From positions 4,798,231 to 4,862,230 of the forward strand of contig NC_134033.1 of assembly GCF_964204645.1 (NCBI RefSeq): DNA of 64,000 bases. The letters run 5' to 3'. This DNA is from Tubulanus polymorphus (taxonomy: Eukaryota > Animalia > Nemertea). Position 1 is the first letter of the stretch; every line of letters begins with the position of its first letter. Below are positions 16,975-63,411 of the stretch, piece by piece. The notes under the pieces are model-generated. The model saw only the letters and a program-made list of their open reading frames with translations, did no database searches and was not told the origin of the DNA. Position numbers and translations under genes: made by a program.

Positions 16975-18401
16975 TATCCTCTGTTGTTCTAAAATCTAAC
17001 CATAATGCATATTTATTGCCGGTATAATAATCAATTTGATTAATATTACAATTTTCAGATGATTTTACTTTTTCATTCATAAAATGTTTTCTAATTTCTG
17101 GCCATTGATCTATCGTTCTCATTCCTTGACAAAATATTTTATTTGCTATTCCTTCGATAGTTATTTCTACTTTTGTTATTTCAGGATTATAATACTTATC
17201 AACCTGTATTTCGCCATTAGAATATGTTGCAATGGTAAAAAATATTAATATACCTATATATTAATAGATCTTCTTGGGAAGTTAATATTCTCATTAATTA
17301 TTTCATCACTTGCATTGATAGTTACAGTTTTAAATTTGTCAATATAATCATATAATAATGAAAATCCTTGATTGTATTGAGTTTGAATTATACTTGAAAT
17401 ATTTTCATCAGTTACTGTATCATATTCTAAACATATATTCGATAATTTATAACCCATATCTTTAACAACGGTAGATAATACAATTTCATTTACAGGAGCA
17501 AATGTTATCTCAAATATAACATCTTCTTGAATTGCATATTTATATAAAGGTGCATTATTATTTATCAATTCAAAGTCTAATGGAATTTTATATTTGCTTC
17601 GATAAATATTTTTTATCAATTTATCCATAGCATTAGTTAATATTGCGCTATTAGCTTCAGATCTTAATTTATTTTGGTTTTCTGATTGGATGCCTTGAAA
17701 TATCATATTCTATTCTTTAGTTAACCATAAATCTTTATAATGCATGAATAAATTATAATCATCTCATGAGAAAACTGTTTCTGGACCAATCTTTATAGTT
17801 AATTTTTTAATCAAATATCTTCCAACGTTATCAACAACATAATTATTATTATTGCCAGTTACTTTTATATCGGCTGAGAAATAAATACTATTTCGAACAT
17901 AAAAAGTATTTTGTGTTAATCTAGGGATTCTAACATATAAAGTTTCATAAGGATTAATATTAGAAGGGTTTTGAGTAATTATATGATGTGATCTTTCTGC
18001 TTTAATAGCCTTAGATATTCTATGATTCTTAGAAGGATTGATATAACTCCCACTCATTTATTTAACAAAAAATTAATTATTTATTTTTTATCATATTCAC
18101 TAACCAAAAAATAATAACACTTACAACTGTAATTAAAAATAAAATAATATGTTCAGCAGCAAAGTTAAGAATATTCCCAGTAGATTTCAATTTAAAACCA
18201 ACAATTGATGCAATAATTCCTGGTAAAGCTGCAGCAGATTTTTTAGATAGTTCCCATAAATATTTTGCTAATTTTTTTAAACCATCCTTAACTTTATCTT
18301 GTATAGAATTATTATCATTCGGGGGTTTATCTGGTTTATTAGGATTTGGTGTAGATTTTAATGAATTTGATATTGCTAAACCAATTGTTGTGAATACCAT
18401 A
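16975..18401 (-). mobile_element. Fragment of a second copy of the same Polinton family (3' end of the coiled-coil/TM gene plus most of the major capsid gene)
   Basis: Peptides are nearly identical to those of 43112-44955 (NKPDKPPNDNNSIQDKVKDGLKKLAKYLW; YVRIPRLTQNTF; KYALWLDFRTTED). No TIRs. Confidence 0.93.
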
Positions 18402-29779: not shown

Positions 29780-32700
29780 ATGGCGGAAAGTAGACCATTT
29801 ATAAAGGTAGATAATTCTAAAATGCGTATCGGGGGTGACAAAAATACGGCGACAATAACTACAACTCTCAAAGACATCGACGGATCTGCTAAGAATCTAG
29901 GTAATTATAGAGTTTAACCATCAGAACTCGTGCTTTATTATCACTATTAGTTTTAATTTTTCATAATAAATGTAGACAATTCTGAATTGAATATCGACGG
30001 TGACAATAATACGACGACAATATCTACAGATTTCCAAGGCATCGGTACAGCTTCTGAGAATCCAGGTAATTATAGATTTCAACCAACAGGATTCATTTGT
30101 ACAGTTGTGACTTGAGTTTAGATTTATCTAAGATAATTAAGAAGCCAATAAGAAGATACGTGTCTGAAGATTCTGAAGGCAAAAATGGACCCCCTCACCT
30201 GATTGTTTTTAGGTCTTAATAGATGAAGGACCAATGGTCCAGTGGCTCTCCAAACTTTGCGAAGTAAAAATCTTTCACCATGTACGTAACGATTCATAAG
30301 GAAAAAAGAAAATTTACTCGGTTTTTGTCACCGTCAACTTCTAAAAAATGACCTTTATTAGAACAAGAATAAAATCTTCTTCGAAAGTTTGATTATTGGA
30401 ATTTGCAACAAATGTTCACAGTTTCAATGCAACCCGAGAGAGAGAGAGAATGACATAGGCCTAAAGTTGAAACAAAAATCGAATAAAAATCAACAAGTAT
30501 TATAAATAAGAAATTGAACAATTCAACTAGCTTAAATCTAGTGTACTTTAGCAACATTCAGTTAAATATTAGTTGTAATGGTAGAATCAGAGTTGCCTGA
30601 AAACACAAAATTCCCATTACTATTGTAAATGGTAGTTTGTGTGTTTTGGGCGATTTGAAGTGGTTCTAATGGTATCTGTTAAAATGATCCATCGAACGGA
30701 TGGCTTATTGAAATATTTGGGGGTCTTAGGTTTCATATATAATTGTAACACATATGACCCCCTAAACATGAGACCCAAAAGGTCTTAGGTCTTATGTTTA
30801 GTGAAATCCGGGAGGAAAATTTGCAATTGTTTTTCTTTTCGTATACCCAAGATATGCCGAAATTTTATACAATGCTGACTTTTTGTTGAATCTCATTGTC
30901 ATTTGGTTGCTGGTTTGATCATGGTTACAACGTTACAGTAACGTTAACTCGGATAATGTCCAGTCGGTACAACAGCCTGACTACTTCTGATTACAAATGG
31001 TTTAATAGAATTTCGTCGATGATTGTTTCCCAGGAACAAAGCTGCCACCAATAGGTATATTTTGGGATATTGAAAATTGTCAAGTACCAAAAGGGAAGTC
31101 GGCGTTTGACGTGGCTAACCGTATTCGAGACAAATATTGCGCTGGATCCAGCCTCGTCGAGTTTGTCTGTGTTTGTGATACCAGCAAAGAAAATCGCGAA
31201 GTTGAATATGAACTTGGTGAAGCTCAGGTAAATATCTGCATTACCTCTCAAATAAGGAAAAATCTCACTCAACTTGAATAAAGACTAAAATAACTTCCAT
31301 CCGAGTTTCTGGTAGTTTTTAGTTCACTTATTGACCGTCATCCATCCGTCCATATATGGAATGAAATTATTCTGGGAAGGTTCAAAGACTATTCAATATT
31401 TCGTCTTGATATTTGGTTTGTACATGAATCTACCCCTAGACACGTCTGTAGCCGAAACATGGACTGATCAGAATCATGATCGATAGCCATTGGTATGGTC
31501 GTCACAGAGTAGCGACCGTAAAGCCCTCATTTTGTTAGAATGATAAGTCATTTGTTAGCACGGTTTGTTTTCCATGTAAAACAAAGTTCAAATGTCCGGA
31601 TTAGAGGTTGCAATTAGCACAGATCAAATTTAGAATTTCTCAATTTTAGACAATTAGACAATTTCTTAAACATCATCCATATAAAGTCTTGTGGGACATT
31701 GAAATTCATCGCAGAGCTTTAATTTCTTATCTCTAATACAAGATAGCACACAAAGCTCATTTAGTCTCATCTGACTTGCATTGTTCTCTTTCCGTGGCTC
31801 CAAGTCGGTGCATATATTTCTTTCGCCCATTTAGCGGTCTGCTGGGTGTTTTTGGGCACCAGTAATTGTAAAAGTGGGGTTTCAGATCAGAGGTCGAGAG
31901 GTCGAGACACCACTCATCACCACAAGTAATTTTTTTTCCTTATAAATGGGGGAGAATGAACACCAACCAGAAAATAATAATGTTAATGAAAATCAATATC
32001 ATTGTCCATATTGTAAAAAATACATCGATAAATCCCAAAAATCACGACATGAAAAATCTGCAAATCATATAAAAAATGTAATAGATTTTGAAACTCCAGA
32101 AAATTCCAATGAAAGAAAAGAACGATTAGAAAATACGAATGTGGATGAAATAAAATGTGAAGTTTGTAATGAATTTATAATAAAAAGGAATTATAATAGA
32201 CATCTCGAATCACAAAAACATTATTGAAATTTAAATAAAAATGTTTTAGGATCAGAATATTTTGATAATAAACCTCAACAAGTAAAAAAAAATCAACTTC
32301 AAAAACTAAATCCATTTCAAATAAACCTTACATGGAAAATGTTAGAAATTATATTGATTCACTAGAAATAAAAGATACAATTGAAATTTTAGAAACATTA
32401 CATAGTAAAATTGGTCCTGCAGCTATTCTATTTAGATTTTTTAAAGGTACAACAATAGAAGATTATAGTAAATTTAATGAAATAATAGAAAAAATACTAG
32501 ATTTGATAACAGATGTTGAATATCCAAAAATTAGTATCTCTGGGAAAGTAAGTTTTATAATGTCAGAAGAAAATATGAATTATAATATTCAAACACTCTC
32601 TGAAGAAATAATTTCAAAAACACAAATAAAAGAGAAGTTAGAAAAAATATTAAATGAATTTAAACGTCATATTGAAGAAAGATATTTTGAGGGTTCTGGC

Positions 32701-35700
32701 TTAACGTTGAATGAAATAATATATTTAGATTTAAATGTTTATAATACAAAAAGAAATAAAACATCAAAAAGTAATAAAATGTTTAAAAATGATTCAAACT
32801 TTACAACAGAAAAGGATATTAAAGCATCATCTTATATTAAATTACCATTTATAACAAAAGCAGTAATAAATATTCAAAATGAAGATAATAAATGTTTTCT
32901 ATGGTCAGTTATTAGTTGCTTACATCCATCACAGGAAAATGTTTGTAGAATAACAGATTATCGGAAATATGAAACATTATATAAAATTGATCAATATCCA
33001 GTAACTATAAAAATGATTCCTAAAATAGAAAAAGTTAATAATTTAAAAATAAATGTATTCGAATTAATGCAATTACCAAAGACAAAAGGTGAAAATATTA
33101 AAGATTATACATTGGAAGCTTTATATTTAACAGAATATTATGATGATGAAAATGCTATAGATTTGTTATATTATAAAAAAGATGAAAATGAACATTATAT
33201 GTGGTTAAAACAAATTGATTTATTCTTTAGAACAACAGAAAGTGATCACCATAATAAAATGTATCTATGTAGAAAATGTTTATCTAAATTTATAACTGAG
33301 AATGCGTTACTAAAACATAAAGAATTATGTGATAATAAAGATTTTTGTAAATTAATAATGCCAACAGAACAAGATTATAAATTGAAATTTACTAATCATA
33401 AATTTAAGAATATTGTTCCTTTTGTAATTTATGGGGATTTTGAATCATTGAATAAAGAATTAACTAATCAAGATAGAAAAGAAATATATAACAAAAAGCA
33501 ATTATTAAAATCAATGGATAAAGGAAATGAATTAAATGAAGACACAATGCTGCTTATGGAATTTATATAAAATCAAATTATCCTGAATTATATGAAAGTC
33601 AATATATTTCTTTTAGAGGTGAAAATATAGTTAATGATTTTGGTGATAAAATGATTGAATTAGAAAGTGATTTTGCAAAATTATTAAACAAAAATAAAAG
33701 AATAGTTATGACAAAAGAAGATGAAATTGATTTTAATTATGCAACTCATTGTTGTTATTGTGAAAAACGTTTTTATTCATTTGATAAAAGAGTTTGAGAT
33801 CATGATCATTTGAATTCAAAATATCGTGGAGCTGCTCATGAAGATTGCAATTTACAAGCTAAAAAAGTAAATTTTGTACCAATATTATTTCATAATTTAT
33901 CAGGATATGATACCCATCTATTTATAAAACAATTATTGGGAAAATTGGGCGCAATTATCAAGAAATAGAAGAATATAATGCTATGAATGAAGCAAATGTA
34001 AGAAAATATGATTTTAAACTATTAGCTAAAACATCTGAAAATTATATTTCATTTCAATTTGGTTGCATTAGATTTTTAGATTCTTATAGATTTCTAGCAA
34101 GTTCATTAGATAATTTATCAAAAAATTTAGTTGATAATGATTTTGATCTCGATATTATTATCCAAATGAACAAGATTTTAAATTATTGAGATATAAAGGC
34201 GCAATTCCTTATTCATTTTATAAAACACACAATGATTTTAATGTAACAGAATTATTAAAAGATCAATTTTATGATCAATTAAAAGAGGATTATGTGAAAG
34301 ACGAAGTTTTTAATAGAACATTAAATATTTGGAACCATTTTAAGATGAAAAATCATGTTGAATTAGTTGATTTATATTTAAAATCAGATGTTATGATATT
34401 GGCTGACATATTTGAAAAATTTAGAGAAGTTAATTTGAATCATTTTAATGTTGATCCTTGTTATTGCTACTCTAGTCCTGGTTTAACCTGGCAATGTGGT
34501 TTAAAATATACAAATGTAGAATTAGATTTATTAAAAGAACCAGATATGGTTTTATTATTTGAAAAATCAATTAGGTGGAATTAGTGGTGTTATGGGAGAT
34601 AGATATTTTAAAGCAAATGATGAATATAAATCATTATATATTGACGCCAATAATTTATATGGTTGGGCAATGATGCAACCTCAACCATATAAAAATTTTA
34701 TATTAACAGAAGTTGAAAATGGTGATAAAACTGATTGGGAAAGCGCAATTGCGAGTTTAAAAGATGAAGCACCAATTGGTTATTTCTTTGTAGTTGATTT
34801 AGAATATCCTGAAAATATAAAGTTTAAACAAGAAACTTACCTTATTGCCCAGAACATTTAACTGTAGATGATAGTTATTTAAGTGAATACCAGAAGAAAA
34901 TAAAACCGAAAGATCATGTTTTTACAGAAAAATTAATACTTACTCAAAATAATAAATACAATTATATTGTTCATCATAGAATGTTAAAATTTTATCTAAA
35001 ACAAGGAATGAAATTAAAGAAAGTACATAGATATATTGAATTTAATCAATCGAAGTGGTTAGAAAAATATATAGATTTCAATACTCAACAGAGAACCATA
35101 TCAAAACAGATTTTGAAAAAGATTTCTTCAAATTGATGAATAATAGTTTTTATGGTAAAACATGTGAAAATATTAGAAATAGAAATGATATTGAATTAGT
35201 AAATAATTCTGAAAGATTAAGACATTTACAATTAAGTCCTAGACATTTAGGAAATAAAAGATTTGAAGATTATTTAACAGCAGTTAAATTAAAAAGAACA
35301 TCAATGAAATTTAATAAACCTATATTTATTGGTTCGACTGTTTTAGAAGTATCAAAATTATTAATGTATGATTTTTATTATAATGTTTTACAACCACTTT
35401 TTGGGGAAAAGCATATTGAAATATTATATTTTGATTCTGTAACAGCTGACACCCCAATATTATTAAAATGTAATAATAAAATATTGATAAGAAGAATTTC
35501 AGAAATAATTCCAAAACAAAATGAATGTTATATTTCATATGGAGAAAAAGAATTAATACAAATAAATGGTTTAATGGATGTTTGGACAAGAAATGGATGG
35601 AAAAAATTAAAGAATATTATTAGGCATAAAACAAATAAGAAAATCTATAGAGTTAGAACTAAATTAGGATTTGTAGATGTTACAGAAGATCATAGTTTAA

Positions 35701-38700
35701 TTAAACGAAATGGTGATGAAATAAAACCAACTGATATAAAAATTGGAGATGAATTATTACATAAAAGATTTTTCCAAAGAATGAATCATATGTTATTTGA
35801 TGAAATTATTGATGATATTTATAATATAGAACCCGAAACATTAGAAGAAAAGAATATTTTATCAAAGGATTTTTCATGGGAGATGGTTCAGCAGGTGTGT
35901 ATAATTATGTTAATCGCACTCAATATCGTTGGTATTTATGCAATCAAGATTTGAAATTATTAGAAAGAATAAGGAAATTCTGCGAAGAAGTTTATTCATA
36001 TAAAACATTGAGAATCATGGATCATATGAAATCATCCGCGGTTTATAGAATATTTGTAAATAATCCTAAAGATTTTGCTACAAAATATAATGATGAATTC
36101 TATATTCATGCAATAGTGAAAAGTAATACTTCAACAAAAGAAAAGATAGTTCCAGATTATGTATTGAATGCAAAAAATAATTTAAGAAAGTGGTTCTTCA
36201 TTGGATTCTATGCCGCAGATGGTTTAAAAAGTTTCCAAAACCGCAAAACATATCCTTTGCTCAAAAAGGAAAAGTTGCTATATCAGGATTGAATATATTA
36301 TGCAGTTCATTAGGATTTAATATGAATATAGAATTAATTAAATCTAAACCAAATTGTTTTAATTTAAGGCATGTAGAAAAAGAATTAACAGAAGAAGTTA
36401 AAGATTTATTTGAAATATATAACCCAACTGACTATGTTTATGATTTATCAACAGATGATGGAACATTCAATTCTGGGTTCCCATTAATCCAAAAAAAATA
36501 CCGACAGTTACATACTAAAAATCAAGACAAATGACATAACAAAAGACTTAAAAACATTAAAACATCATTTTGATTTTAGCAATTATCCCAAAGATCATGA
36601 ACTATTTAGCAATGATAATAAAAAGATCCCTGGTAAGTTTAAAGATGAATTAGGGGGTGATGAAATGATTGAATTTGTTGGGATAAGAAGTAAAATGTAT
36701 AGTTACAGAACAAAAGATCATGAAGCTAAAAAGTTAAAAGGAATAACAAAACATGTGGTTGATAAACATATAGAATTTCAAGATTATATAAAGTGTTTAT
36801 ATAAATCAATTGTAATGAAACACAAAATGTTTAAGATCAGAAGATCATGAGATGTACATTAATGAAGTTGAAAAAACTAGTTTAAATCCATTTGATGATA
36901 AAAGGCATAGATTATGGTATAAAAACATTACCTTATGGTCATTAAAACATAAAATCAATATCATCATAATCGAAATCACTATTGGTTTCTTCATTTTCAT
37001 TTAATTGTTTAGGTTCTTCTTCCATTCCATTTTTTTCATTTAAATAAAGTTCTATCTTGTTCCACATTTCATCTCGCTCTCTTTGTTTCTTTTTGTTTGT
37101 TAATTCGTCAAATGGAATTATAATATCTAGGTTTAAATGATTTACAATCTTATTTAAAAAGAATTCATAATTTATTGAATCTGTTATTCTATTTTCCAAA
37201 TGATACATTAATATTTGTTTGAATATTTTTTTTTATATTTTCCGTATCTTCTTCTGTTAATTTAGGTTTTTCATAATAATCGTTAAATAATAAATATAAA
37301 TACATTTTCTTTTGTTTTGTGTTAAATGTTGACGGAATAATTGTATTTATAATATCTTTTTTAGTTATTTCACCATTTTTATTTTCTATTATTTTCATTT
37401 TTTCAAGCCATTGCATATATTCTGGTGTATGATCTTCTATAGAAAATATTTTAGAAATTTCATCTAGATAATTTAATTTTGGTTCTATGAGAAAATCTCT
37501 AGTTTTTTCTTCACCCCATAAATTCCTTTGCCATCCACAATCAACACAAAATAACACAGTACCTTCTTGTCTTAAGGTCGCATAAATACATTGCGGGCAT
37601 TTTTGTTTATAATTTATTGGTAATAGATCTTCATTAAGCTCTTGGTATTTTCTTACGTTTTCTTTATGTTTTATTGTTCTATTATGTAGATTTGAATTAC
37701 TTGTTGTAATAATCAATTTACAATATTTACAATAATATGTTTTTCTTGTTAATTCATTATATTGTTTTTCTAACTTTTCAACTGTTTCTTTATTATCTGG
37801 TAACGTTTTCTCATATTCTATTTTTTCTAATAAATTATCTTTTCTTTCATTGAATTCAGTTTCAAATTTATTAGAAATTTTATCTTTATGTACTTTACGA
37901 AATTGATGATTCTCCCAATCTTCTATATTTTATTCGACAAGGCTCGCAGATATGATCTTTTATATTATCCTTGTCATAGAATAAGAAAGGTCTTTTCCAA
38001 ATAATTTCAGGTTCAACTTCAACAGAATTACTATTACTTTCGTTACTATCAACATTAGACGTTGCGCCATTAATTCTACACTTCTCTGAATGTTTTTTAA
38101 CATAATTTCTTGAGAATAATTTATTACATTTTGGGCAGTTTATTTTAGGGGGTTTATAATTTTCATCATGTTTTTTCATATGTCGAGCCATATTACTTTT
38201 TCTTAGAAGTTCACCACAAATTTCGCATGCTATCTTCTCATCCATTTATTTAGGAAAAATTTTATTAAAATTAATTTTTAGTGATGAGCGGTAATTTTTT
38301 TATGTTATAAATAATGGTAGAATTAAAAGAATACAGAATATTTGTTGATTCTAGAAGACTTACAAATTATAAATCTCATAATTTACTAGTTCAATTAGAT
38401 AGAGAATTTAAGAATTGTGTTGATTTAAAATTAGTAAATATAAGTTTATGTAACTCATTTTACAATATATCAGATAAAACTGATGAACATAGAAGCCTTC
38501 TTATTTTTGATAAACTTGAAAAAAAATGGATTCAACTTATGCTTACACCAGGATTATATAATTTAGAAACATTAGCGCAAGAAATTAATAGAAAAGCTCG
38601 GATTAGATTAGGTAATGGTAATTCCAAATTTAATATTAAATTCATAAAAAGTGAGAGCTCTAATAAAATTAAAATAAAGTTTGATGATGAACTTATTAAA

Positions 38701-41700
38701 CTTGTTAAATCTGATACATTGATGACAAGAAGACATACTTACACGGTAAAAAAACCTTTTGCAAAACTGTTAGGAATTACTCCAAATGATTTTATTGGTG
38801 TAAACATACACGGTAACTCAAATATAATACCTTTTACACACTTTTATATTTATTGCAATTTAATCGATCCTACAAAAACATTTGAAGCAACTAAAGATAC
38901 AACATGTAATTCTAGTATATTAAATATTTTACCATTGAAGAACGTTAAACAATTTGGAACGCAAATAAATTATAATTTAGCTGAATGTGATTTTAAACCT
39001 TGTATTCCTTAATTTAACAATTTTAAATTAGAAATAAGAAATCATAATGGTTATTTAATTGATTTGAATAACTTTCCTGTAATTTATGAATTAGTTATAA
39101 GATGTAAAGAGTAATTTTTTCACTATATAAATGAATATAACTGTTGGACCGAGTATATGTTTTGGGTTTGATTTTAAACGTGAGAAAGAAATGAAATTTA
39201 ACATTAATGATGTAATTACACATATTAAAAATATTGCATTTTCTAATGAAACAACATTTGAGTATAAAACAACAATAGATAAAGAAACTTTAAATGTAGA
39301 AAAGATTACTAATTTAATTAGAGAATCTTTAAGATTTTATGAATTAGATGAAGATTTTATCATCGATGATATTAGAAAAATAATAATTGAAATATATACA
39401 AATGAAACTAGTAATAAAATAAATGTTGAATTAATCATCACTAAAATAACTAAATATTTTGAAGATAGTAATTTTTTTGATAAATAAATGAGTGATAATA
39501 AGTGGATAATAACTGGATTATATAATGGCGCCTTACTATCAGTTGGAACTGTTGGTTATTCAATGGTATTAAAAAAAGTATTCAAAATGGGAAGTGTTAA
39601 TGTTGATAGATTTGATATAAATGATATTTTAAAGTTAACATTAGCAATTACTTTATCTAATTCAACTATTGATTATTTGGAAAAACAAAAATATATTCCT
39701 CCCATATAAATGCATAATTTTTTTGCTAAATAAGTGGCTTCTGCAATTATAACTATTATAGGATCGGCAATTGTTAACGCTTTAGCATTTACTGGTGGTG
39801 GTTATTTATTTAAACATATTGATAAAAATAGTTCATCAGGAGAACAAAGAGGACATAACTTAGCATTAGAGAAATATAATAAAGCTGCAGAAGAATATAG
39901 AGAAAAAAGACCAAAACTATATGGATTACATCAATAAAGAATTATATGATCAGAAGATTTCACATAGAGATTTTCAATCAGTTGATGATGCAATGAGTTT
40001 ATATAACGCGGTAACCAATAAAGAAAAATTACATCTATACAAACCTAAATTATCAGATTATTATACCCCAAGTAATGAACAGAAGAAATATGAAATAATT
40101 TGGATTTTAGGTGGAACTGTTGTTGTTATATTTGTAGCATATAAGTTTACTAATTAGTAATTTTTTTTGCTAAATAAATGGAAGATAATGTTGATAATAT
40201 TGATATTATTCTTCATGATATAAATAAAACTAAATTAGAAATATATTTAGAAAAACAAATATTAGAATTTGAAAGTGACTTTTAAAAGTTAAAAAGAAAA
40301 AATATCTAAAAAGTAAAATTATATATTATTTGATTATAAGTGGTTCGGTTACAATTAGTTCTGTAATAACATTTTTAGCAATATTCAGCCCATTAACCCC
40401 TTTAGCTATATCAATTGGTGTGTTAGGATTAAGTTCAAGTGTTTTAACTGGTATAAGTTCAAAATTGAATATTAAAAGTAATAAAGAAAAAATTAAAACT
40501 AATATAAAAGAAATTAATAAATTAAAGAATACACTAGATTATATAATAAGTTTAAATGGCCATATAACAGTTGAAGAACAAGATAAATTATTAAAAGAAT
40601 TAATAAATTATTAATTTTTTAATTATATAAATGGGGTTTCCAAAAGCTTTCCAATATAATAAATCAATTAAATATAATATTCCTGCAATAGATTTTAAGA
40701 AAAATATTACATATAGAAATGTAGTTTTAAATTCATTAACTAATTTAGAAATTTATGTTACTGAATCACAGTTTTTTATTTCTAAAATGGAAAATATATT
40801 TAATACATATGAAGTTACTTTTACTCGAGATGAATACCATATATATAAAGTAAAATCTAATATGAAATATTGGCAGAACCAATTAGATTTTGCTGTTTAT
40901 TCTGCAACAACAGGATGTGGAATAAGTTGGAATGATCATTTAAATAACTTAGATAAAAATTTGAAGTATTCTGATTTAAAATTAATTCACACAATATTTA
41001 GATTTCACACATATTTTCAAATCAGAATAATATTAAATGAATTAGAATGTCCTTTACCCGGGTCTAAATATTTTAAAGAATTGGATAATAATATTAATAT
41101 ATCTAAGTTTTATAAAATATGTAATGAATTTAATATAAATATTAATTCCGATTTCAGAGCGCATGGTATATTGCAAGGTGTTGGTGAAGAGTTTGAAATA
41201 AAAAGAATTGATTATATGCATAGAATTTCAGCTTATCATAATTATAAAGATGATAATAATAATGGTTGGGTTAATTTCATTTTAGAAAATGGTGAAGGTT
41301 TTACAAAATCAGGTATACGAAGAATAAATCAATCTATTAGAATTTATTTGATATGCATTTTAGGCGCTCAAGTTGAAGCAAGATCCCCAATAATTGGAAA
41401 TGATAACACTTCATTCGATGCGCAGAAACAGTTTAAAGTTTTATTTGAAGATTCAATTCATAATGATAAAAATAGATCGATTCCAGAAAACATTATAAGA
41501 TATCAAAATTATTTAGATAAATCACATATTACATTAAATTATTGTATATGCCCTAATCTTTTAATTATTTCTAATGATTTAGAATTAAAGATGGGAAACA
41601 TAACTGGTTATAATAATCTAATTAAAACTGCTACAATAAATAATTCATTTGGGTTAAATGATATAAATAAAAAGATTATCACTGCTCCAAAATTAATGGA

Positions 41701-44700
41701 AGGTGAAAAAAATAAAAAACATATTCAATCAACAGAAACTAAAACTAAGAATATTAAATTGGATAATGATTCCAAAATAAAAGATTACAATACTACAGAA
41801 AATGGTGCCGTACGGCACCCACATGGTGATATTAAAACTGATAATGGTGCCGTATGGCACCCACACGGTGTTATTCAACATAATATAATTAAAACTGATA
41901 ATGACAATAAATCCCATGAAAATACTAAATTAGCTATAACTTGTATAGGAATTGTTATAGGAGGAATATTATATTTTAAATTTTAATTTTTTTATTATAT
42001 AAATGGATGTAGAAGGTGGAGAAGATATTGGAATGGATCCTTTTGATGAACCTGGTATAAGTGATGAACAACCACCTGATTTTGATGAAACAAGTTTTAA
42101 TGATGGTAATGAGCCAGAATATAATAATAATTTGAATATACCTGATTATATTAGAAATGCAGAATCACAATGAAATCCTGAAAATTTAGACCCAGATTTA
42201 GTAAAACAAGATTTAGATAATTTAAACAAAATACCTAAATTAGAACGTATAATTGAAAAGTCTAAACTTAACATAAATGATGAAGACGTTGGACTTTTAG
42301 CAGATCAATTAAAATTTTTAGATAATGGTAAATGTTATTATCGTTTGAAAGGTGATTATTATATTGATATCACTTATAAAAATAATAAAAATAAAATATT
42401 ATCAGAATCAACTTTAGAAAAATTAAAACCAGATAGAATTAAAATAATAAGTAATAGTAATGAAATAACTGATGTTACACAAAAAGAAATAGATGATAAT
42501 ATAGATGTATTTAAACAAATAATTAATGAATTATTTGAAATAATCAAAAAGAAATCAGAAACAGAAACAACTTCTGAACAGAATATAACTTCCAAAAATA
42601 GTAAACTTAAATCAAATAAAGTTCCAATTGAAAAACTTTTACCGAATGGATTAATTGATGCAACAGATCAAGAATTAGAAGATTTAGATATATTTTCTGA
42701 TAAAGCAATTAGAGAAATTATTAGTATAAGACTTGCATCTAATAAAATTGCGCATGATAAAAGTATAAGAGATTTTAAAATTAGAACTTTAGAAAAAGAA
42801 TTAACTGATAAAAATAAAGAAATAGAACAATTAAAGTCTGATTTAGATCATCAAGTAATTGATGAAATAGAATATAGGCAAAAAGAATTACGTTTAGAAA
42901 AAGAAAAAGATGATTTAGAATATAACATAGAATTACAAAAAGAAGAAATTAAATTATTGTTAAAATCATATGATTATAATATTAATAGATTAAAAGTTAT
43001 TTTTAAAGATTTGTTGATTAAACCAAATTCTGAAATATCATTAAAAGATAGAATAAAGTTATTATTTAAATTAGAAGGAATAACAATTCTTTCAATTCTA
43101 ACAGCTGTAACTATGTTATTTACAACAATTGGTTTAGCAATATCAAATGCTTTGAAATCTACTCCTACTCCCAATAAACCGGATAAACCCCCGAATGATA
43201 ATAATTCTATACAAGATAAAGTTAAGGATGGTTTAAAGAAACTAGCAAAATATTTATGGGAACTATCTAAAAAATCTGCTGCAGCATTGCCAGGAGTTAT
43301 TGCATCAATTGTTGGTTTTATATTGAAATCTGCTGGGAATATTCTTAACTTTGCTGCTGAACATATTATTTTATTTTTAATTACAGTTGTAAGTGCTATT
43401 ATTTTTGGTTTAGTAAACATGATCAAAAATAAATAATTAATTTTTTTTGTTAAATAAATGAGTGGGAGTTATATAAGTCCTTCTAAGATTTCTAGAATAT
43501 CTAATGCTATTAAAGCATAAAGATCACATCATATAATTACTCATAACCCTTCAAATATTAATCCCGATGAAACTTTATATGTTAGAATTCCTAGATTAAC
43601 ACAAAATACTTTTTATGTTCCAAACAGTATTTATTTATCAGCCGATATAAAAGTAACTGGTCATGATAATAATTATGTTGTCGATAATGTTGGGAGATAT
43701 TTGATTAAAAAATTAATTATAAAGATTGGTCCAGAAACAGTTTTCTCATTAGATGATTATAATTTATTTATGCATTATAAAGATTTATGGTTAACTAAAG
43801 AAAATAGAAATAATATGATATTTCAAGGTATCCAATCAGAAAACCAAAATAAATTAAGATCTGAAGCCAATAATGCAGTAGTAACTAATGCTGTAGATAA
43901 TTTGATAAAAAAGATTTATGGAAGCAAATATAAAATTCCATTAGACTTTGAATTGATAAATGATAATGCACCTTTATATAAATATGCAATTCAAGAAGAT
44001 TTTAGCAGATCAATTAAAATTTTTAGATAATGGTAAATGTTATTATCGTTTGAAAGGTGATTATTATATTGATATCACTTATAAAAATAATAAAAATAAA
44101 ATATTATCAGAATCAACTTTAGAAAAATTAAAACCAGATAGAATTAAAATAATAAGTAATAGTAATGAAATAACTGATGTTACACAAAAAGAAATAGATG
44201 ATAATATAGTTCTTTTTATGTTCCAAACAGTATTTATTTATCAGCCGATATAAAAGTAACTGGTCATGATAATAATTATGTTGTCGATAATGTTGGGAGA
44301 TATTTGATTAAAAAATTAATTATAAAGATTGGTCCATGATAATGCACCTTTCCATTAGACTTTGAATTGATAAATGATAATGCACCTTTATATAAATATG
44401 CAATTCAAGAAGATATTATATTTGAGATAACATTTGCTCCTGTAAATGAAATTGTATTATCTAGCGTTGTTAAAGATATGAGTAATAAATTATCGAATAT
44501 ATGTTTAAAATATAACACAGTAACTAATGAAAATATTGCTAGCACAATTCAAACTCAATACAATCAAGGATTTTCATTATTATATGATTATATTGATAAA
44601 TTTAAAACTGTAACTATTAATGCAAATGATGAAATAATTAATGAGAATATTAACTTCCCAAGAAGATCTATTAAAGGTATATTAATATGTTTTACTATTG

Positions 44701-47700
44701 CAACATATTCTAATGGCGCAATAAAGGTAGATAATCATTATAATCCTGAAATAACAAAAGTTGAAATAACTATCGAAGGAATAGCAAATAAAATATTTTG
44801 TCAAGGAATGAGAATGATTGAAGAATGGCCAGAAATTAGAAAACATTTTATGAATGAAAAAGTAAAATCATTTGAAAATTGTAATATTAATCAAATTGAT
44901 TATTATACCGGTAATAAATATGCGTTATGGTTAGATTTTAGAACAACAGAGGATAATTCATTACATGGTTCTGGGAAAAAACTACAGAACACTAAATATG
45001 GAATACAATTATTCATGGCGAAGAAAAGAGGGGACAAAAATTTCAAAATGCATATTTATATTATATCTGACGCACAATTAAATATTGTAAATTCACAATT
45101 AGATAGTATTCAATATTAGAAATATAAAGTTAAAATTAAGGATATATAAATGGGCGGTAAAAAAACTCCTAATACTAAAGAACAATATTTAAGAAACTTA
45201 TTATTACAACCCTGAGAGTTCGGTTGCTTATTCTTCTACTAAAAATATATGGCGTAAAGTAAAACAAGATAAATTAGATAAGATAATCCCACAAAATTTA
45301 GTTAAATATAAAGATATAAATGAATTGAATGGAGCTTCCCACTTTATAGAAAAGATGCTGTACAAACATCAAATGTTTTAAGAAAATTTCTTTCGGGTGA
45401 TAAACTAAAACCAGAAAAAATACAAATACAATTTGATGATGGAAAAGAGTTTGATAATTCACTTGTTCATGAACTCTTAGATAATCATAATATTAAATAT
45501 TTTTCAACAAAATCAGATAAAAAGCAGCAGTTGTTGAACGATTTAATAGAACATTAAGAACAAGAATGTGGAAATATTTTACAGCAAATAATACTTTTAA
45601 ATGGATTGATGTTTTACCAAAATTGACAGAAGGATATAATAATTCTTATCATTCTTCTATTGGAATGAAACCTATTGATGCTAGAAAACCTGAAAATGCT
45701 GAAATTGTTTGGAATAATTTATATGGAGCATTTCTTGTAGATGATTTTGGTGAACCTAAATTTAAAGTTGGTCGAAATGTTAGAATTTCTAAGTATAAAA
45801 AGATATTTGATAATGGATACGATCGAAATTTTACTAGAGAAATATATGAAATAAAAAAGGTAATAACAACAAAACCATATGTCTATAAATTAGAAGATTT
45901 AGATGGTGAAGAAGTTGATGGCTACTTTTACGAAGAAGAATTAAGTTTAACTACTGAAAATCTATAACAAGAATATAAAATTGAAAAAGTATTAAAAACA
46001 AAAACTATTAAAAGAAAAAAATATTCTTTAGTAAAATGGGTTGGATGGCCAGATAAATTCAATGAATGGATATTATCAAGTGAAATTAAAAATATATAAA
46101 TGAATAAAGAATTATTTATATTTGAGCCTCATAATATTTTAATATCTGGCGTAACAAATTGTGGAAAAACTTATTTTATATTCAATTTATTAGAAACTGT
46201 TTATGAAAACTATTTTGATAATATAGTATTATTTTGCCCAACGTATGAATTTAATCAAACTTATGATAGAAACTTTACTAGAAATAATAAATTTATTATA
46301 TTAGATCCTAAAACAGTAAAAGAAAATTTAGATAATTGTATAAAAAAAGCAATTGATATTTATAAAGGATCAAATATATTATTTATCATAGATGATTGCG
46401 CAAATTTACATGATTCAAAAGTTAGAGAAAGTGAGTTATGCTATTTAGCTTTTTCTGGCAGACATTTTGGGATAACAACATGGGTTTTAAATCAAAAATA
46501 TAATTCAATTGTTAAAGACTTTAGAGAAAACATTAGATTTCTAGTTTTATTCTACAATAAAGATAGAAAATCAATGAAAAATGCACTTGAGGAAAATGAT
46601 ATTATTCCACATGATTTACATAATGAATATATGGATAAGTTGAAAAATATTAAAAGATCAAAATTACTATTTAGATTACAACACCCATTTAAATATGAAT
46701 TTATTTAAATTCAATTAGTTTGTTAATCAATTACATATTTAGTTACATTCTAGTTGAATTCTAGTTATTGGTAGTTGTAACAAAAATCAACTAGATTTTA
46801 ACAATATTGTAACTAGCTTGTTAATCTAGTTTAATTCTAGTTACATTCTAGTTGAATTCTAGTTATTGGTAGTTGGAACAAAAATCAACTAGATTTAACA
46901 AGAAATAAACAAAAATAACAATATTTCAACTAGCTTGTTAATCTAGTTGAATTCTAGTTACATTCTAGTTGAATTCTAGTTGCAACATCACAACTAATTT
47001 TTTTGTTATATAAATGGTAGGTGAAAAGAAAATAAAATCTAAAAATGGTGATGTTCCAATTGAAAAAACTTTAGATGATTTAGGAATAAAAGAAACAAAA
47101 TTAATTCCAGATGATGGTGTTTTAAATAATGTTACAACAAATAATAATTATGAATATTATCTTTACTGTAAACATCAATTAGAAATATTAATAGCATCTG
47201 GAAATTGTAAAAATTTTGTCGGTAAAAATTTAACTTATAATGAATTAGATACAATGAAATCAGATGAAATTATTAGATTATTTAAGATTCATGAAGCCGC
47301 GAGAACAGCTAGAATTAATGACGCGATATCAGAAAATGTAGTAAAAGGTTATAATAAATTATGTAATTATATACTACCAATTGAAGATGAAAATAGATTA
47401 TATTCCGATTTAAAAAATGATTATTTAGTTATGACTGAATTAAATAAATTGGATTGGATATTTATCATTTCAATTAGGTGGATTCATGACATTATTATCA
47501 ACTGGGGTTATAACATTTTCAAATATTGAAAGTAAAAATATTTCTATAATAAATGAGCGAGGTGGAAGAAGTGAAGAAAAAACCGAGATCACGGAAACAA
47601 ATTGAATGGTCTCGGCAATTAGGAATTAAATCACAAGAATATAAAAAAGCTGTAAAAGAAAAAATAAGTAATAAAAATGTAAATAAAAATAGTGAAAATA

Positions 47701-50700
47701 TTGTTATTTCTAATCCTTCTAATGATAGAATATTTGATAAATGTCTATATTTTACAGTTGGATTTGTAATTGTATTCATTTTGATTGGGTGTAATTGGTA
47801 TAAGAAATCAAATAAAATTCATGATATTAATAATTCTGAAACAACTGCTATCAAAAATGAAAATGCTTCTGAAATTCCAAAATTGACAATAAAAAAATGG
47901 ATTAATATTTTAGAAAAAAGCAAAAAAAATAATTGAATATCTCACTACTTTTGTCTATCTATGCGGAGCAATTAAATTGTCCAGATAAGTCATTTCGGAT
48001 TCTAGATATTCATTATTTTTATTAATTTATTTTGTTTTTACTTGAATATTGTATTACAGTCGTTTCTTATTATTAGTTTTTTCTTAAATTGAAAGATGGC
48101 AGCACTGGGTGTGATGCTAAAATGAATATTTGAATTTGAATTTGTTAATCAATTAACATAGTAATTGATTACTAATTTGATTAAAAATTATATCATAATT
48201 AAGTCAAAAATCCATAATTCATTTATCGGTTTTCATTCTTATATTCTTTTCATTCGGAATAATTTATAATTTCAAATTTCACATATTTTTTTAGCACCAG
48301 CAACATTTACTTAGGTGTTTTAGCTAAGTATATAAGGCAATTCATTCAACCAGTGGAGTAGCTCTGGCCAGCAGAGGCATTTTGAAAATGCACCTTCGTC
48401 CACTCTCCGGGTTTCTCCTTCGGTTTCGAATTTCGAGATTGGTAGAAATTACATTAGGTGCCTTTAATATAATGTGATTTCTACCAATCATTGAAGGAGA
48501 TCTCGGTTGACGTGGGTCGCCGGGAGTGTAAGTAGAAATGACGGGGGATAAGCGTCCCTTGGCGCCTTTCAATAACGGGATGCTTATCCCCTGAAAACTC
48601 TATAGGTAGAGGATAGGGCAATTTTGCTAAAACTTACCGTAAAAACATTGAAATATTCCTTTTAATCACGAGAGAATGATGACTATCCTCCTGTCGTCAC
48701 GGCCGAGCTAATTTAAATAAACCTCGCTTTCAGCAACCAATGAAAACGTGGTAGTTCAATGCCGGCTAACTGGCTTGTGTGTGTTGTATGTACTGCGTGC
48801 TTATTATAAAACTGCTAGCTATCCAATATAACAACAACGTTGTGCAACACCTGTTTGATTGATCAATATTCAAATGAAGCACTCTCATATAATAACATGT
48901 AACAGATGTTTGACTGTATGATTGTAGTTGTTTATAAAACGACTAAGGTCATTTTGGATTCTAGATATTCATTATTTTTATTTTTATTTAATCAACAATT
49001 TCTAAATCATGATGACCATCTTCATTTTTCCCATGATATATTATTTTAAATCCTACTAAATCTTTCAATTCCTCTGTACTCAATGAAACCCATTTATCGG
49101 GTAAAAACACTTTAAATTCTCGTGATGTACTAACATTACAGTAGCTTAAATTAGCTGATACTTTCTCTCCATATTTAGTTTTTATCTTTTCTAATTTCAA
49201 TATTTTATGTTCAATTTCTTTTGTAACATCAACTAACTTTTTTATTTCAAATTGTTTTTTTGTTGGTTTAATTCTGTTATTTATTGTTGCTAAGAATGCT
49301 TTTCTATCTTCCATTTATAAGGAAAACAAATTACTTGTGGTGATGAGTGGGGATTACTTCCCCTGTATATAACAAACACGCTTTTAACCGTTCTCACCCA
49401 AGCCTCACGGCATCTATTTATCCGGGTACATTTAACACACGCGCAGCTGTTGTTACGCGCACTCACTGTTTATGTGTGTCACAATTCTACTGCGTAATAT
49501 TTCTAAAATTTCAATTGTATCTTTTATTTCTAGTGAATCAATATAATTTCTAACATTTTCCATGTAAGGTTTATTTGATCTATCAATGTATTTTTTACAA
49601 TATGGACAATGATATTGATTTTCATTAACATTATTATTTTCTGGTTGGTGTTCATTCTCCCCCATTTATAAGGAAAAAAAATTACTTGTGGTGATGAGTG
49701 GTGTCTCGACCTCTCGACCTCTGATCTGAAACCCCACTTTTACAATTACTGGCACCCAAGTACTTATTCTCCATCAAATATCCACAAGGCGACATGGCTA
49801 GTATTGATAAACGCCGCGTAAACGCTGTATAAAGTAGAGTGGTATCAGTGAATTATACGGGATGGTCACTTTTCAAACTGTGTGAGATTAGTAGGTTATT
49901 GCACGTCACACATTCACTACCATTAAATATGATAATTATTTTCAGGTAAAAATTCTTCATGTTAGCGCTACTAGTAAGAACGCAGCCGATAACAAATTGG
50001 TTCAACTGTTACGGGATTTTGGTGAAAATCATTCCCAGCCTGGTACTGTTCTTCTTATCTCAGGTAAAACTACAAATAATATGCACCCCAGTAAAATATG
50101 CTACCGACCTCCACCGTTGAACATATTCAAGCCTATGACTGGCGAATTTATCACCAGCGAATTATTTACTCGGTGATTTGAATTGCTTTTCGTCCAATTT
50201 TAGAAAAATTCGCCCTAGTCTGTCACAGGTTTAACTTCTGAAATTGTGGTGCTATATTTGTTTAGGTGATGGTATTTTCAAGCAGGTTTTGTCGGATCTG
50301 AAATATCGCTGTGGTTTTAAAACTGTCGTGTTACATAATAAGACCGTGTCGAAAGAATTGTTAGCGTTTGCTGATGATCACTGCGTGTTCAGTGAACTAT
50401 TCGATGATTTACCTGAAAGACAACCCAAGGTAAGTTACAGCTGTTTCAGTTGGGTCCGCCGGACTGTTAGAGCTTGTGGGAATACTGTCATAACATTCAC
50501 GTATAAGGGTGGTTTATTTCACAGAAATCGTCAAGCAGCCCAGTTGAATTACTGGTTACAAATTTACCGACTCGACCGCCTGATGCAACGCCCGATAAAC
50601 ATGCCCATAACTTACGAAAGCGTTTGAATCAATTATTTGATAACCGCGGTGGTAAAGTCAAGAATTTGGATCCCGACAAATGTTCAGCTATCATGACGCT

Positions 50701-62252: not shown

Positions 62253-62342
62253 ATATACATACAAGCATTCATAGAATGTGTGCATTTTACGTGACGCATT
62301 GGTAGGTGTTCCATTTCATAGATTACAGGTTTCTCTCTCACG

Positions 62343-63411
62343 ATGAATTTCAGTTCGCAGACGACTTCACTACTCTTTACAACTACTAGAAATCCCTGCT
62401 CACCTTACTTATTCCAAAACGTATTGTCAATCAGCGTAAAACTAGCTGGAGGTTTTCCTATCAGTATCGTCGGAATAATTTTGAATAGTTTCAGCATTGT
62501 GATTTTACGTCGCCAAACTTCAAATCACATATGGCTCTACATTCTGCGATGTCTGGCAGTGGCTGACATAATCTTTCTTACATTTCACATAATTCAAGAG
62601 CCTTTTCGTTTCATTGTCTCCGGTTTGACCCAGGGTAGTCATATGTTCGTGATTCCTACGAGTATGAGTTGGGGTATTCGGCCATGGATCTATCGGGTAG
62701 CTTGGTTACCGAGAAACTCAGCGCAAGTGACAAGGAACTGGATAACTGTACTACTAGTTTTAGAAAGGTCTTTTTCTATCGCTAGGCCATTCTTCGCTAG
62801 AACTCATTTCACAATACCAAGGGTAAGAATTGTAGTTTGTTGTTTCTATATTATTTTTGGTATCTTAGGCTCTCCATTGATTATCGGTACTACAGTAGGT
62901 ATCTGGTTTTATGACGAATGTAATAAAGTCGTCATGAAATCCATCCGCCTGAGCAAGCGATCCCATACGAAGATACTTTCTCATTGAAATATTTACGTCG
63001 ATTGATCACTTTCCTAGTCCTTTGTATAAAGAAATCCTACCTGCTTTATTGCTAATAATTTTCAACAGCCATCTGATATGGACTCTGAAAAAGATTAGTT
63101 CCAGGAGAAAAGAAATGACACACGAAGGCGAACAAAGGCTAGACGTGAAAGCTATCAGGATAGCTGTACCTATTGTTATTTTGTTTGTCGTCTGCGAAAT
63201 CCCTGCTTCGTTCCGATCTTATAACAGTTTCATCGGTCGCTTCGTCAAAATGCCACCTATTAAATACTCTCACACCATCTATACCCTTCAAGAACTGTTT
63301 ACCGATCTTTTACCGACCTTGAACTCGTCTGTAAATTTCTTTATCTATTACATAGCAAACGATAATTTTAGAGGAACTGCAATAAAATTGTTGAGAAGGC
63401 GGCCAATTTAA
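62343..63411 (+). pseudogene. Single-exon FMRFamide-receptor-like GPCR with one frameshift (about 62940-63020)
   Basis: TM1 GIILNSFS, TM2 LAVAD and TM3 RNWITVLLVLER; in a second frame, TM6 FVVCEIP and TM7 LNSSVNFFIYY..NDNFR. Confidence 0.85.

Follow-up and report, generated by a model that had tools for sequence, protein, structure and literature searches.

The stretch of DNA considered here comprises 64,000 nucleotides of the nemertean Tubulanus polymorphus (assembly GCF_964204645.1, contig NC_134033.1, positions 4,798,231 to 4,862,230 of the forward strand). This whole stretch is referred to as the window, and all positions are counted within it; the parts of the element and the host exons lie on its forward strand unless stated otherwise. 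It carries a Polinton (Maverick) element, the protein-primed DNA polymerase B (PolB) of which is split at its catalytic motif C (YFD|TDS) by an insert at 35436..36499. The match to the TIGR01445 profile, the motifs and the junctions found in sequencing reads confirm this insert as an intein with a LAGLIDADG endonuclease. It is 1,064 bases long and contains three frame breaks, near 35,850, 36,250 and 36,490, so that blocks A, B, C, D, E, H and F are spread over three successive natural frames.

The YFD codons occupy 35427-35435 and are followed directly by the codon for Ser1, from 35436. The N-terminal splicing region (35436..35795) contains, besides Ser1, the Thr and His of block B (35670-35696); in the first intein frame it matched TIGR01445 (intein_Nterm) with 34.3 bits against a cut-off of 24.5, and the same frame matched PI-PkoII, an intein in the PDB (E 8.7e-5). 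The endonuclease core (35855..36273) is recognized from profile matches and motifs, with blocks C at 35855-35887, D at 36020-36037, E at 36194-36223 and H at 36256-36273, and both LAGLIDADG aspartates are kept. The C-terminal splicing region (36433..36499), identified by motifs, comprises block F with its Asp (36433-36453) and the terminal Asn codon (36497-36499), is broken near its end, and is followed by TDS from 36500. The broken pieces score below the Pfam cut-offs (Intein_splicing 19.1 against 35.8; LAGLIDADG_3 20.1 against 22.5), whereas the intact relative P0123 exceeds them (Intein_splicing 37.7, Hom_end 31.1, LAGLIDADG_3 24.8).

At the sequence level, the insert thus has the features of a class 1 intein: Ser1, the block B Thr and His, a terminal Asn, a +1 Thr, and two LAGLIDADG motifs with Asp, together with blocks D and H. 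The penultimate His, usual in class 1 inteins although not obligatory, is replaced by Lys in the window intein and in its relative P0009, and by Ser in P0003, while the other three intact carriers have His. This Lys was considered as a special feature and rejected as such: among 314 inteins pulled by motif from 397 proteins, 135 end in KN, 164 in HN and 15 in SN. Two other identities for the insert were also dismissed. A spliceosomal intron is rejected because the joined form occurs among DNA reads and because the segment codes for protein. The Hint domain of animal Hedgehog proteins does not agree with the endonuclease core, the terminal Asn and the split catalytic motif, and the PDB and Pfam searches gave no hedgehog match.

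Independent evidence comes from raw DNA reads filed under the same species label (run X6, of which about 12% was sampled, at 85% likeness). Exactly the 1,064-base segment is skipped in 60 of these reads, with 40 different start points, by which the boundaries of the intein are confirmed independently of the motif reading. A second variant of the empty site occurs in 23 reads. The summed depth in bins lying entirely within the intein is 139-261 against 284-504 in extein bins (the full bins before the intein and the two just after it), so that the intein reaches about half of the extein depth; the depth of the unique flanks, computed at 90% likeness, is 4.5-25. This suggests roughly ten to some tens of intein-plus copies in the species, as a rough figure. 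Reads with a length unlike that of the window number 192 of 233 at the first break, 22 of 100 at the second and 30 of 77 at the third. The three breaks are therefore not common to all plus copies, and many copies may share the last two.

Relative to intein-free alleles, the insertion is precise and, elsewhere, in frame, while the window copy is out of frame. On account of the three breaks in the intein and about eight further frame changes in the polymerase around it (tblastn with intact P0003), the window copy is a decayed pseudogene. An earlier note on this DNA, made from the letters alone, had described an insert of about 355 residues with these coordinates, ends and three frameshifts, at the Pol-c site between YxD and TDS. 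That description holds throughout, intact relatives being 337-354 amino acids (aa) long, Hint/LAGLIDADG profile matches were found, and so were the intein-plus and intein-minus copies for which it advised to look.

The Polinton and its chromosomal setting

The element (31861..49750) measures 17,890 bp and has a GC content of 24.6%, compared with 36% in its flanks. It is bordered by identical 6-bp target-site duplications (31855..31860 and 49751..49756) and by terminal inverted repeats found by self-comparison, the left at 31861..32041 and the right, 96-98% complementary and on the reverse strand, at 49570..49750. The N-extein (32272..35435), ending in YFD, contains several frame changes and belongs to a protein-primed PolB of putative Beta type; one piece of it matched PF03175 (E 7.4e-6), and its extent was traced, like that of the C-extein (36500..36917, beginning with TDS and hence with the +1 Thr), by tblastn with intact P0003. 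The host protein is therefore of the PF03175 type and not an RNA-primed PolB (PF00136). Further to the right lie a broken and partly duplicated gene for the major capsid protein (43521..45119; direct repeats and a weak Capsid_N match, E 0.005), three pieces of a probable integrase (45193..45967; no Pfam match, and thus no rve, on the three pieces) and an A32-type packaging ATPase (46100..46708; Pox_A32, 44.4 bits against a cut-off of 22.8). An adenovirus-like maturation protease gave no Pfam match among the 22 frames of at least 100 aa, shorter pieces lying outside that scan. With its inverted repeats, 6-bp duplication, protein-primed PolB, capsid gene and packaging ATPase, the element is the Polinton that the earlier note took it for.

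Some rearrangements were observed in the same region. The terminal repeat of the window copy has a rearranged extension (32317-32413/49482-49578), the capsid region contains internal duplications (42295-42513/44000-44218 and 43592-44418), and an inverted fragment of the same element family lies 13 kb upstream (16975-18401), where a capsid region is 91-94% complementary to 43112-44955.

An intron of a MARF1-like host gene harbours the Polinton, since exons of this gene flank the element and the GT and AG ends join the domain that they encode, the NYN nuclease domain, in frame across the interval 31227-49946. The exon on the left (31045..31227, its left edge approximate) holds the start of the NYN domain, matches MARF1 structure 5yaa (E 4.5e-23) and is followed by a GT donor at 31228. 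The next exon (49946..50063), after an AG acceptor, continues the domain in frame and matches MARF1 structure 6fdl (E 2.6e-9), as does a third (50266..50429, E 4.4e-4); Pfam gave no match for these right-hand exons. MARF1 is a germline factor that silences transposons. At 12 kb from the element, a gene for an Srw-type peptide G protein-coupled receptor (GPCR) is found at 62322..63411, in two frames and possibly broken (44.1 bits), with animal GPCRs as the nearest atlas clusters. MARF1 and this receptor point to an animal host.

It could be imagined that the element is a free virus or a contaminant mis-joined to animal DNA, or that the host is not an animal. In favour of this, no long read across a junction was found, and the two short-read contigs that match extend no more than 26 and 28 bases into the element, below the rule of 31 bases, and may stem from the window's own sample. 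In sample X1, which may be that sample, both flanks were matched without difference. The perfect duplication at both ends, the exons continuing in frame between GT and AG, the many decay mutations, the second, inverted fragment and the nearby animal-type receptor leave this possibility very little room. Integration in an animal chromosome, as asserted in the earlier note, is thus borne out.

Relatives and origin of the intein

Used as query, the N-terminal piece of the intein retrieved 164 proteins from a set of 356 candidates and matched 1,885 cluster representatives; the intact P0003 intein yielded 1,302, of which 120 were listed. Among these 120, a full intein occupies the same site in five Polinton-type polymerases (P0003, P0009, P0123, P0133 and P0134), the remainder being RNA-primed PolBs and a type II topoisomerase. 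The inteins of all five intact carriers keep Ser1, block B, both endonuclease aspartates, the Asn and the +1 Thr; that of P0123 spans residues 1042-1387 and that of P0003 residues 1184-1537. With X at the breaks, the window intein is 61% identical to that of P0003, 46% to P0123, 45% to P0009 and 40% to both P0134 and P0133. Its identity to all others is at most 39.5%, the top one being from a giant-virus metagenome-assembled genome (MAG) contig, and giant-virus MAG contigs are also the best non-Polinton matches of the Polinton inteins as a group (39-44%). Ordinary archaeal Pol-c inteins reach 23-28% identity in long alignments. The polymerase relatives that bear a name are from a stony coral and a soft coral. 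P0003, P0123 and P0139 gave no match in scans of viral and metagenome contigs, and the alignment scans, which gave 141 loci with 109 motif-complete inteins, found none in a protein-primed PolB. In the ESM Atlas, the features of the P0123 intein lead to viral and bacterial LAGLIDADG and intein clusters and to no eukaryote cluster, which is a lead only.

The family has some further members. Type II topoisomerases (P0004 and its kin) contain as many as three inteins, of which two belong to this same family, indicating its non-allelic spread. In P0074, a phage-like PolB on a 347-kb contig, residues 633-991 are a divergent member whose site reads MD|TDG. A giant-virus-type Pol-c intein is present in a Promethearchaeota (Asgard) PolB (L142, 685-4677) and on a second archaeal contig (L143); these are 34-38% identical to the Polinton inteins, unlike the ordinary archaeal Pol-c inteins. 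Two contigs filed as Bacteroidales MAGs (L144, 238-5130, and L145) carry a giant-virus-like PolB with intein and are probably mis-binned viral contigs.

Three intein trees were built besides a fast one of the splicing domain. In the first, a quick search with 71 inteins left after thinning from 191 full-length ones, the six Polinton inteins form one clade (SH-aLRT 100) within a 22-row clade (96) that includes three giant-virus MAG rows. In the second, a careful search on 30 rows hand-picked from the first and rooted with topoisomerase inteins, the clade of six (100/99) is nested among giant-virus-type inteins at 95/94. The third, again a careful search, contains 41 rows and has five ordinary archaeal Pol-c inteins as root; it recovers the clade of six at 100/100 and its split from the archaeal rows at 100/100. 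A long stem of 0.43-0.46 changes per column separates the clade from the viral-type rows, and no single sister group was recovered. The affinity with nucleocytoviruses that the earlier note had proposed is found, in that the closest relatives outside Polintons are inteins of RNA-primed PolBs, giant-virus MAG contigs included. Giant viruses are probably the source of the Polinton-borne lineage, and transfer from giant virus to Polinton appears the likely direction, although weakly supported, on branches of 81-95. Since the nearest relatives of the window intein sit in other Polinton-type polymerases, any transfer from giant viruses would be old and followed by spread among Polintons.

Probable spread among Polintons

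Intein carriers are rare and scattered: only two are found among the best 120 Beta polymerase relatives, and the closest polymerase to that of the window, 70% identical, is intein-free. A polymerase tree of 48 rows was built from 41 of the 118 minus relatives, kept after thinning, two more minus and five plus. Its starred branches force four changes for the five carriers, a number as low as that in 59 of 500 shuffles, so that no extra clustering is apparent. The carriers represent four separate Beta lineages and one Alpha-type polymerase (P0009). These class labels are assigned from the strength of the PF03175 match, which is 110.9 bits for P0009 and 52-62 for the Beta type. In blastp, P0009 and the Beta exteins do not match each other, yet its intein, at 45-46% identity, nests among the Beta inteins, at 97/88 in the 30-row tree and at 98/86 and 96/71 in the 41-row tree. 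Between the window and P0003, the intein is 61% identical and the polymerase domain 54%.

The P0123 cluster (136 members) contains both alleles: among 15 members listed, seven are intact and plus at 98-99% identity and six are minus, with natural lengths of 1537 aa for plus and 1191 aa for minus members. Apart from a tract of 50 residues around the site, identity between plus and minus copies is about 99%. Three minus members differ from the plus members at four of the last seven residues before the insertion and at eight of the first 44 after it, against only 2-5 of the 293 residues preceding this tract; in the other three the same tract is divergent, with somewhat more differences elsewhere and, in one of them, an indel. 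Such a tract would fit co-conversion from another Polinton or the survival of cut-resistant sites. Two intein-free members, P0242 and P0244, have YTD|CDS at the catalytic motif, with Cys instead of the usual Thr.

On this basis we are fairly confident that the broken intein of the window belongs to a Polinton-borne clade, likely derived once from giant-virus polymerases and likely spreading between Polintons by homing; it is part of a lineage carried by Polintons rather than the result of a one-off jump into the window element. An intein at YxD|TDS occurs in six Polinton-type polymerases and these inteins form one clade. Once expressed from an intact element, the intein would be spliced out by its Ser1, block B and terminal Asn together with the +1 Thr, according to class 1 chemistry (PMC7765530): Ser1 and block B would start the acyl shift, the +1 Thr would take over the extein and the Asn would cyclise, by which the catalytic motif would be restored. 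The spliced polymerase would work because its catalytic aspartates are rejoined. The freed endonuclease may then cut the empty sites of further Polinton copies that share its nucleus or virus factory, and repair from a plus copy would transfer the intein and some flanking sequence. The coexistence of plus and minus copies, the scattered carriers and the short divergent tract in one family are observed, with homing as their presumed cause. A target could escape only by exact loss or by synonymous or conservative change, since the site is the catalytic motif of the polymerase. The first entry into protein-primed polymerases may have been an old jump from the RNA-primed PolB of a giant virus in a shared host cell, probably through intermediate sites because the window site differs from the 106 viral-type sites at 5-9 of 18 bases; the same argument has been made for mimivirus and archaea (PMC549080). 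The copy in the window has since decayed as a pseudogene. For the most far-reaching version, a working homing intein in animal germlines that derives from giant viruses, drives among Polinton copies, has crossed between both deep polymerase classes and bears witness to animal Polintons sharing cells with giant viruses, the chances seem to us about even.

Several points weigh against this interpretation. The window copy is dead, and many plus copies in the species may be dead too, since few reads depart from the window at the second and third breaks; splicing and cutting are predicted from the motifs of the intact carriers. Only the rows labelled GVMAG among the RNA-primed PolBs are known giant-virus contigs. 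In the third tree, nesting within the giant-virus-type inteins receives only 87/85 and 81/71, with a warning for long branches, and the mismatches at the site count here as well. The Beta carriers have the same branching order in the intein and polymerase trees, a single Beta intein clade that excludes P0009 was not rejected by an approximately unbiased (AU) test (p 0.08), and the GC content of the intein (0.257) equals that of the extein. These last three observations would agree with a single old entry into Polinton polymerases, with vertical descent and many losses, fully ameliorated GC, and plus and minus copies as mere subfamilies with little or no present homing. Such a history would require loss in 118 of 120 relatives, yet the catalytic residues of the endonuclease are intact in all carriers, the intein is no less conserved than the polymerase, otherwise nearly identical plus and minus copies diverge in a tract centred on the site, and an Alpha-type polymerase is a carrier too. 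We regard this history as improbable, although it deserves to be kept in mind.

Similarly improbable, and if anything slightly more so, is a donor other than a giant virus, namely a phage, an Asgard archaeon or a protist polymerase, or a flow from Polintons to giant viruses. The deep branches are weak, the same intein type occurs in the Promethearchaeota PolB and on the second archaeal contig, and a fast tree of the splicing domain placed the phage-like P0074 within the Polinton clade. P0074 shares only 32-34% identity with everything else and, under a mixture model, no longer falls in the clade; its membership was accordingly rejected as a long-branch effect, and it was left out of the 30-row and 41-row trees. 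The two archaeal rows group away from the Polinton clade in the 41-row tree, the top non-Polinton matches are the giant-virus MAG contigs, phage records match the N-terminal piece in only 2 of 50,697 cases, and carriers of the RNA-primed type prevail by far in number and diversity (226 motif-extracted rows against 12). Least credible among these origins is the direct and recent jump from a mimivirus-like virus into the window element that the earlier note proposed. The site is the same as that of the mimivirus intein (YGD|TDS; PMC549080) and the length is similar. The nearest relatives are nevertheless other Polinton inteins, at 45-61% against at most 39.5% for the giant-virus type, the long stem intervenes, and the differences at 5-9 of 18 bases make a single recent homing jump unlikely. 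What stands of that proposal is the affinity with giant-virus-type inteins across polymerase subfamilies; in the separate intein and extein trees that it advised, this affinity and the nesting of P0009 were recovered, and the order of the Beta carriers agrees with the polymerase tree. An old transfer followed by spread among Polintons remains our preferred explanation.

Known systems and significance

In the literature, checked for earlier Maverick inteins as the earlier note recommended, no intein was found reported in a Polinton, in any protein-primed PolB or in an animal genome, within a search that left supplements, Repbase, InBase and subscription journals outside; inteins are described as absent from metazoan genomes in reviews (PMC5784728, PMC8529194). 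The present case places an intein in an animal chromosome in many copies, though within an endogenous virus and not in a host gene, and extends the Pol-c allele from RNA-primed to protein-primed polymerases. The intein may serve as a marker for Polintons and giant viruses meeting in one cell, a point relevant to the question of a dependence of animal Polintons on large DNA viruses. Homing in a eukaryote that offers many target copies becomes directly testable with the natural intact plus and minus copies, which share 99% identity, and the annotation of Polinton polymerases should allow for an insert of 340-350 aa.

The closest parallel is formed by the Pol-c inteins of giant-virus PolBs, for example mimivirus R322 (PMC549080). 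Like the window intein, they lie between the Asp of YxD and TDS and have Ser1, a terminal Asn and a +1 Thr, and they share LAGLIDADG blocks and a length of about 350 aa with the Polinton inteins, R322 being likened by description only. The Polinton inteins differ in that their host protein is a protein-primed PolB, that they form their own clade and that the window copy resides in an animal chromosome; the residues before their site vary (YFD, YGD, YLD, YMD, SSD and ASD). Viral-like polymerase inteins in algal and protist nuclear genomes and the inteins of Anaeramoeba (PMC10710043) are likewise virus-borne and reached the nucleus through integrated viral DNA. They are found in RNA-primed giant-virus polymerases or host genes of non-animals, and the main text of that study does not contain the words polinton, animal or metazoa.

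Nuclease domains inside Polinton polymerases are also known as HNH and VSR inserts (PMC10748475, PMC11071308). It has been suggested that these stem from intein invasions, no splicing domain being named (PMC11071308), and they are described elsewhere as HNH or VSR domains in a paper from which the word intein is absent (PMC10748475). Unlike these, the window insert has a full splicing domain with a LAGLIDADG nuclease and splits the catalytic motif. The anatomy of the element and the polymerase classes resemble those of the Beta and Alpha adintoviruses and Polintons (PMC8502044, which mentions no intein), with a weak PF03175 match for the window type and a strong one for P0009. The closest solved structure by sequence is PI-PkoII (PDB 2cw7; E 8.7e-5 and E 4e-4), an archaeal PolB intein endonuclease that is longer (537 aa) and distant. 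Compared with these systems, the case presented here shows a known intein allele that occupies a host protein of a new class, lies in an animal chromosome and bears signs of having spread among Polintons.

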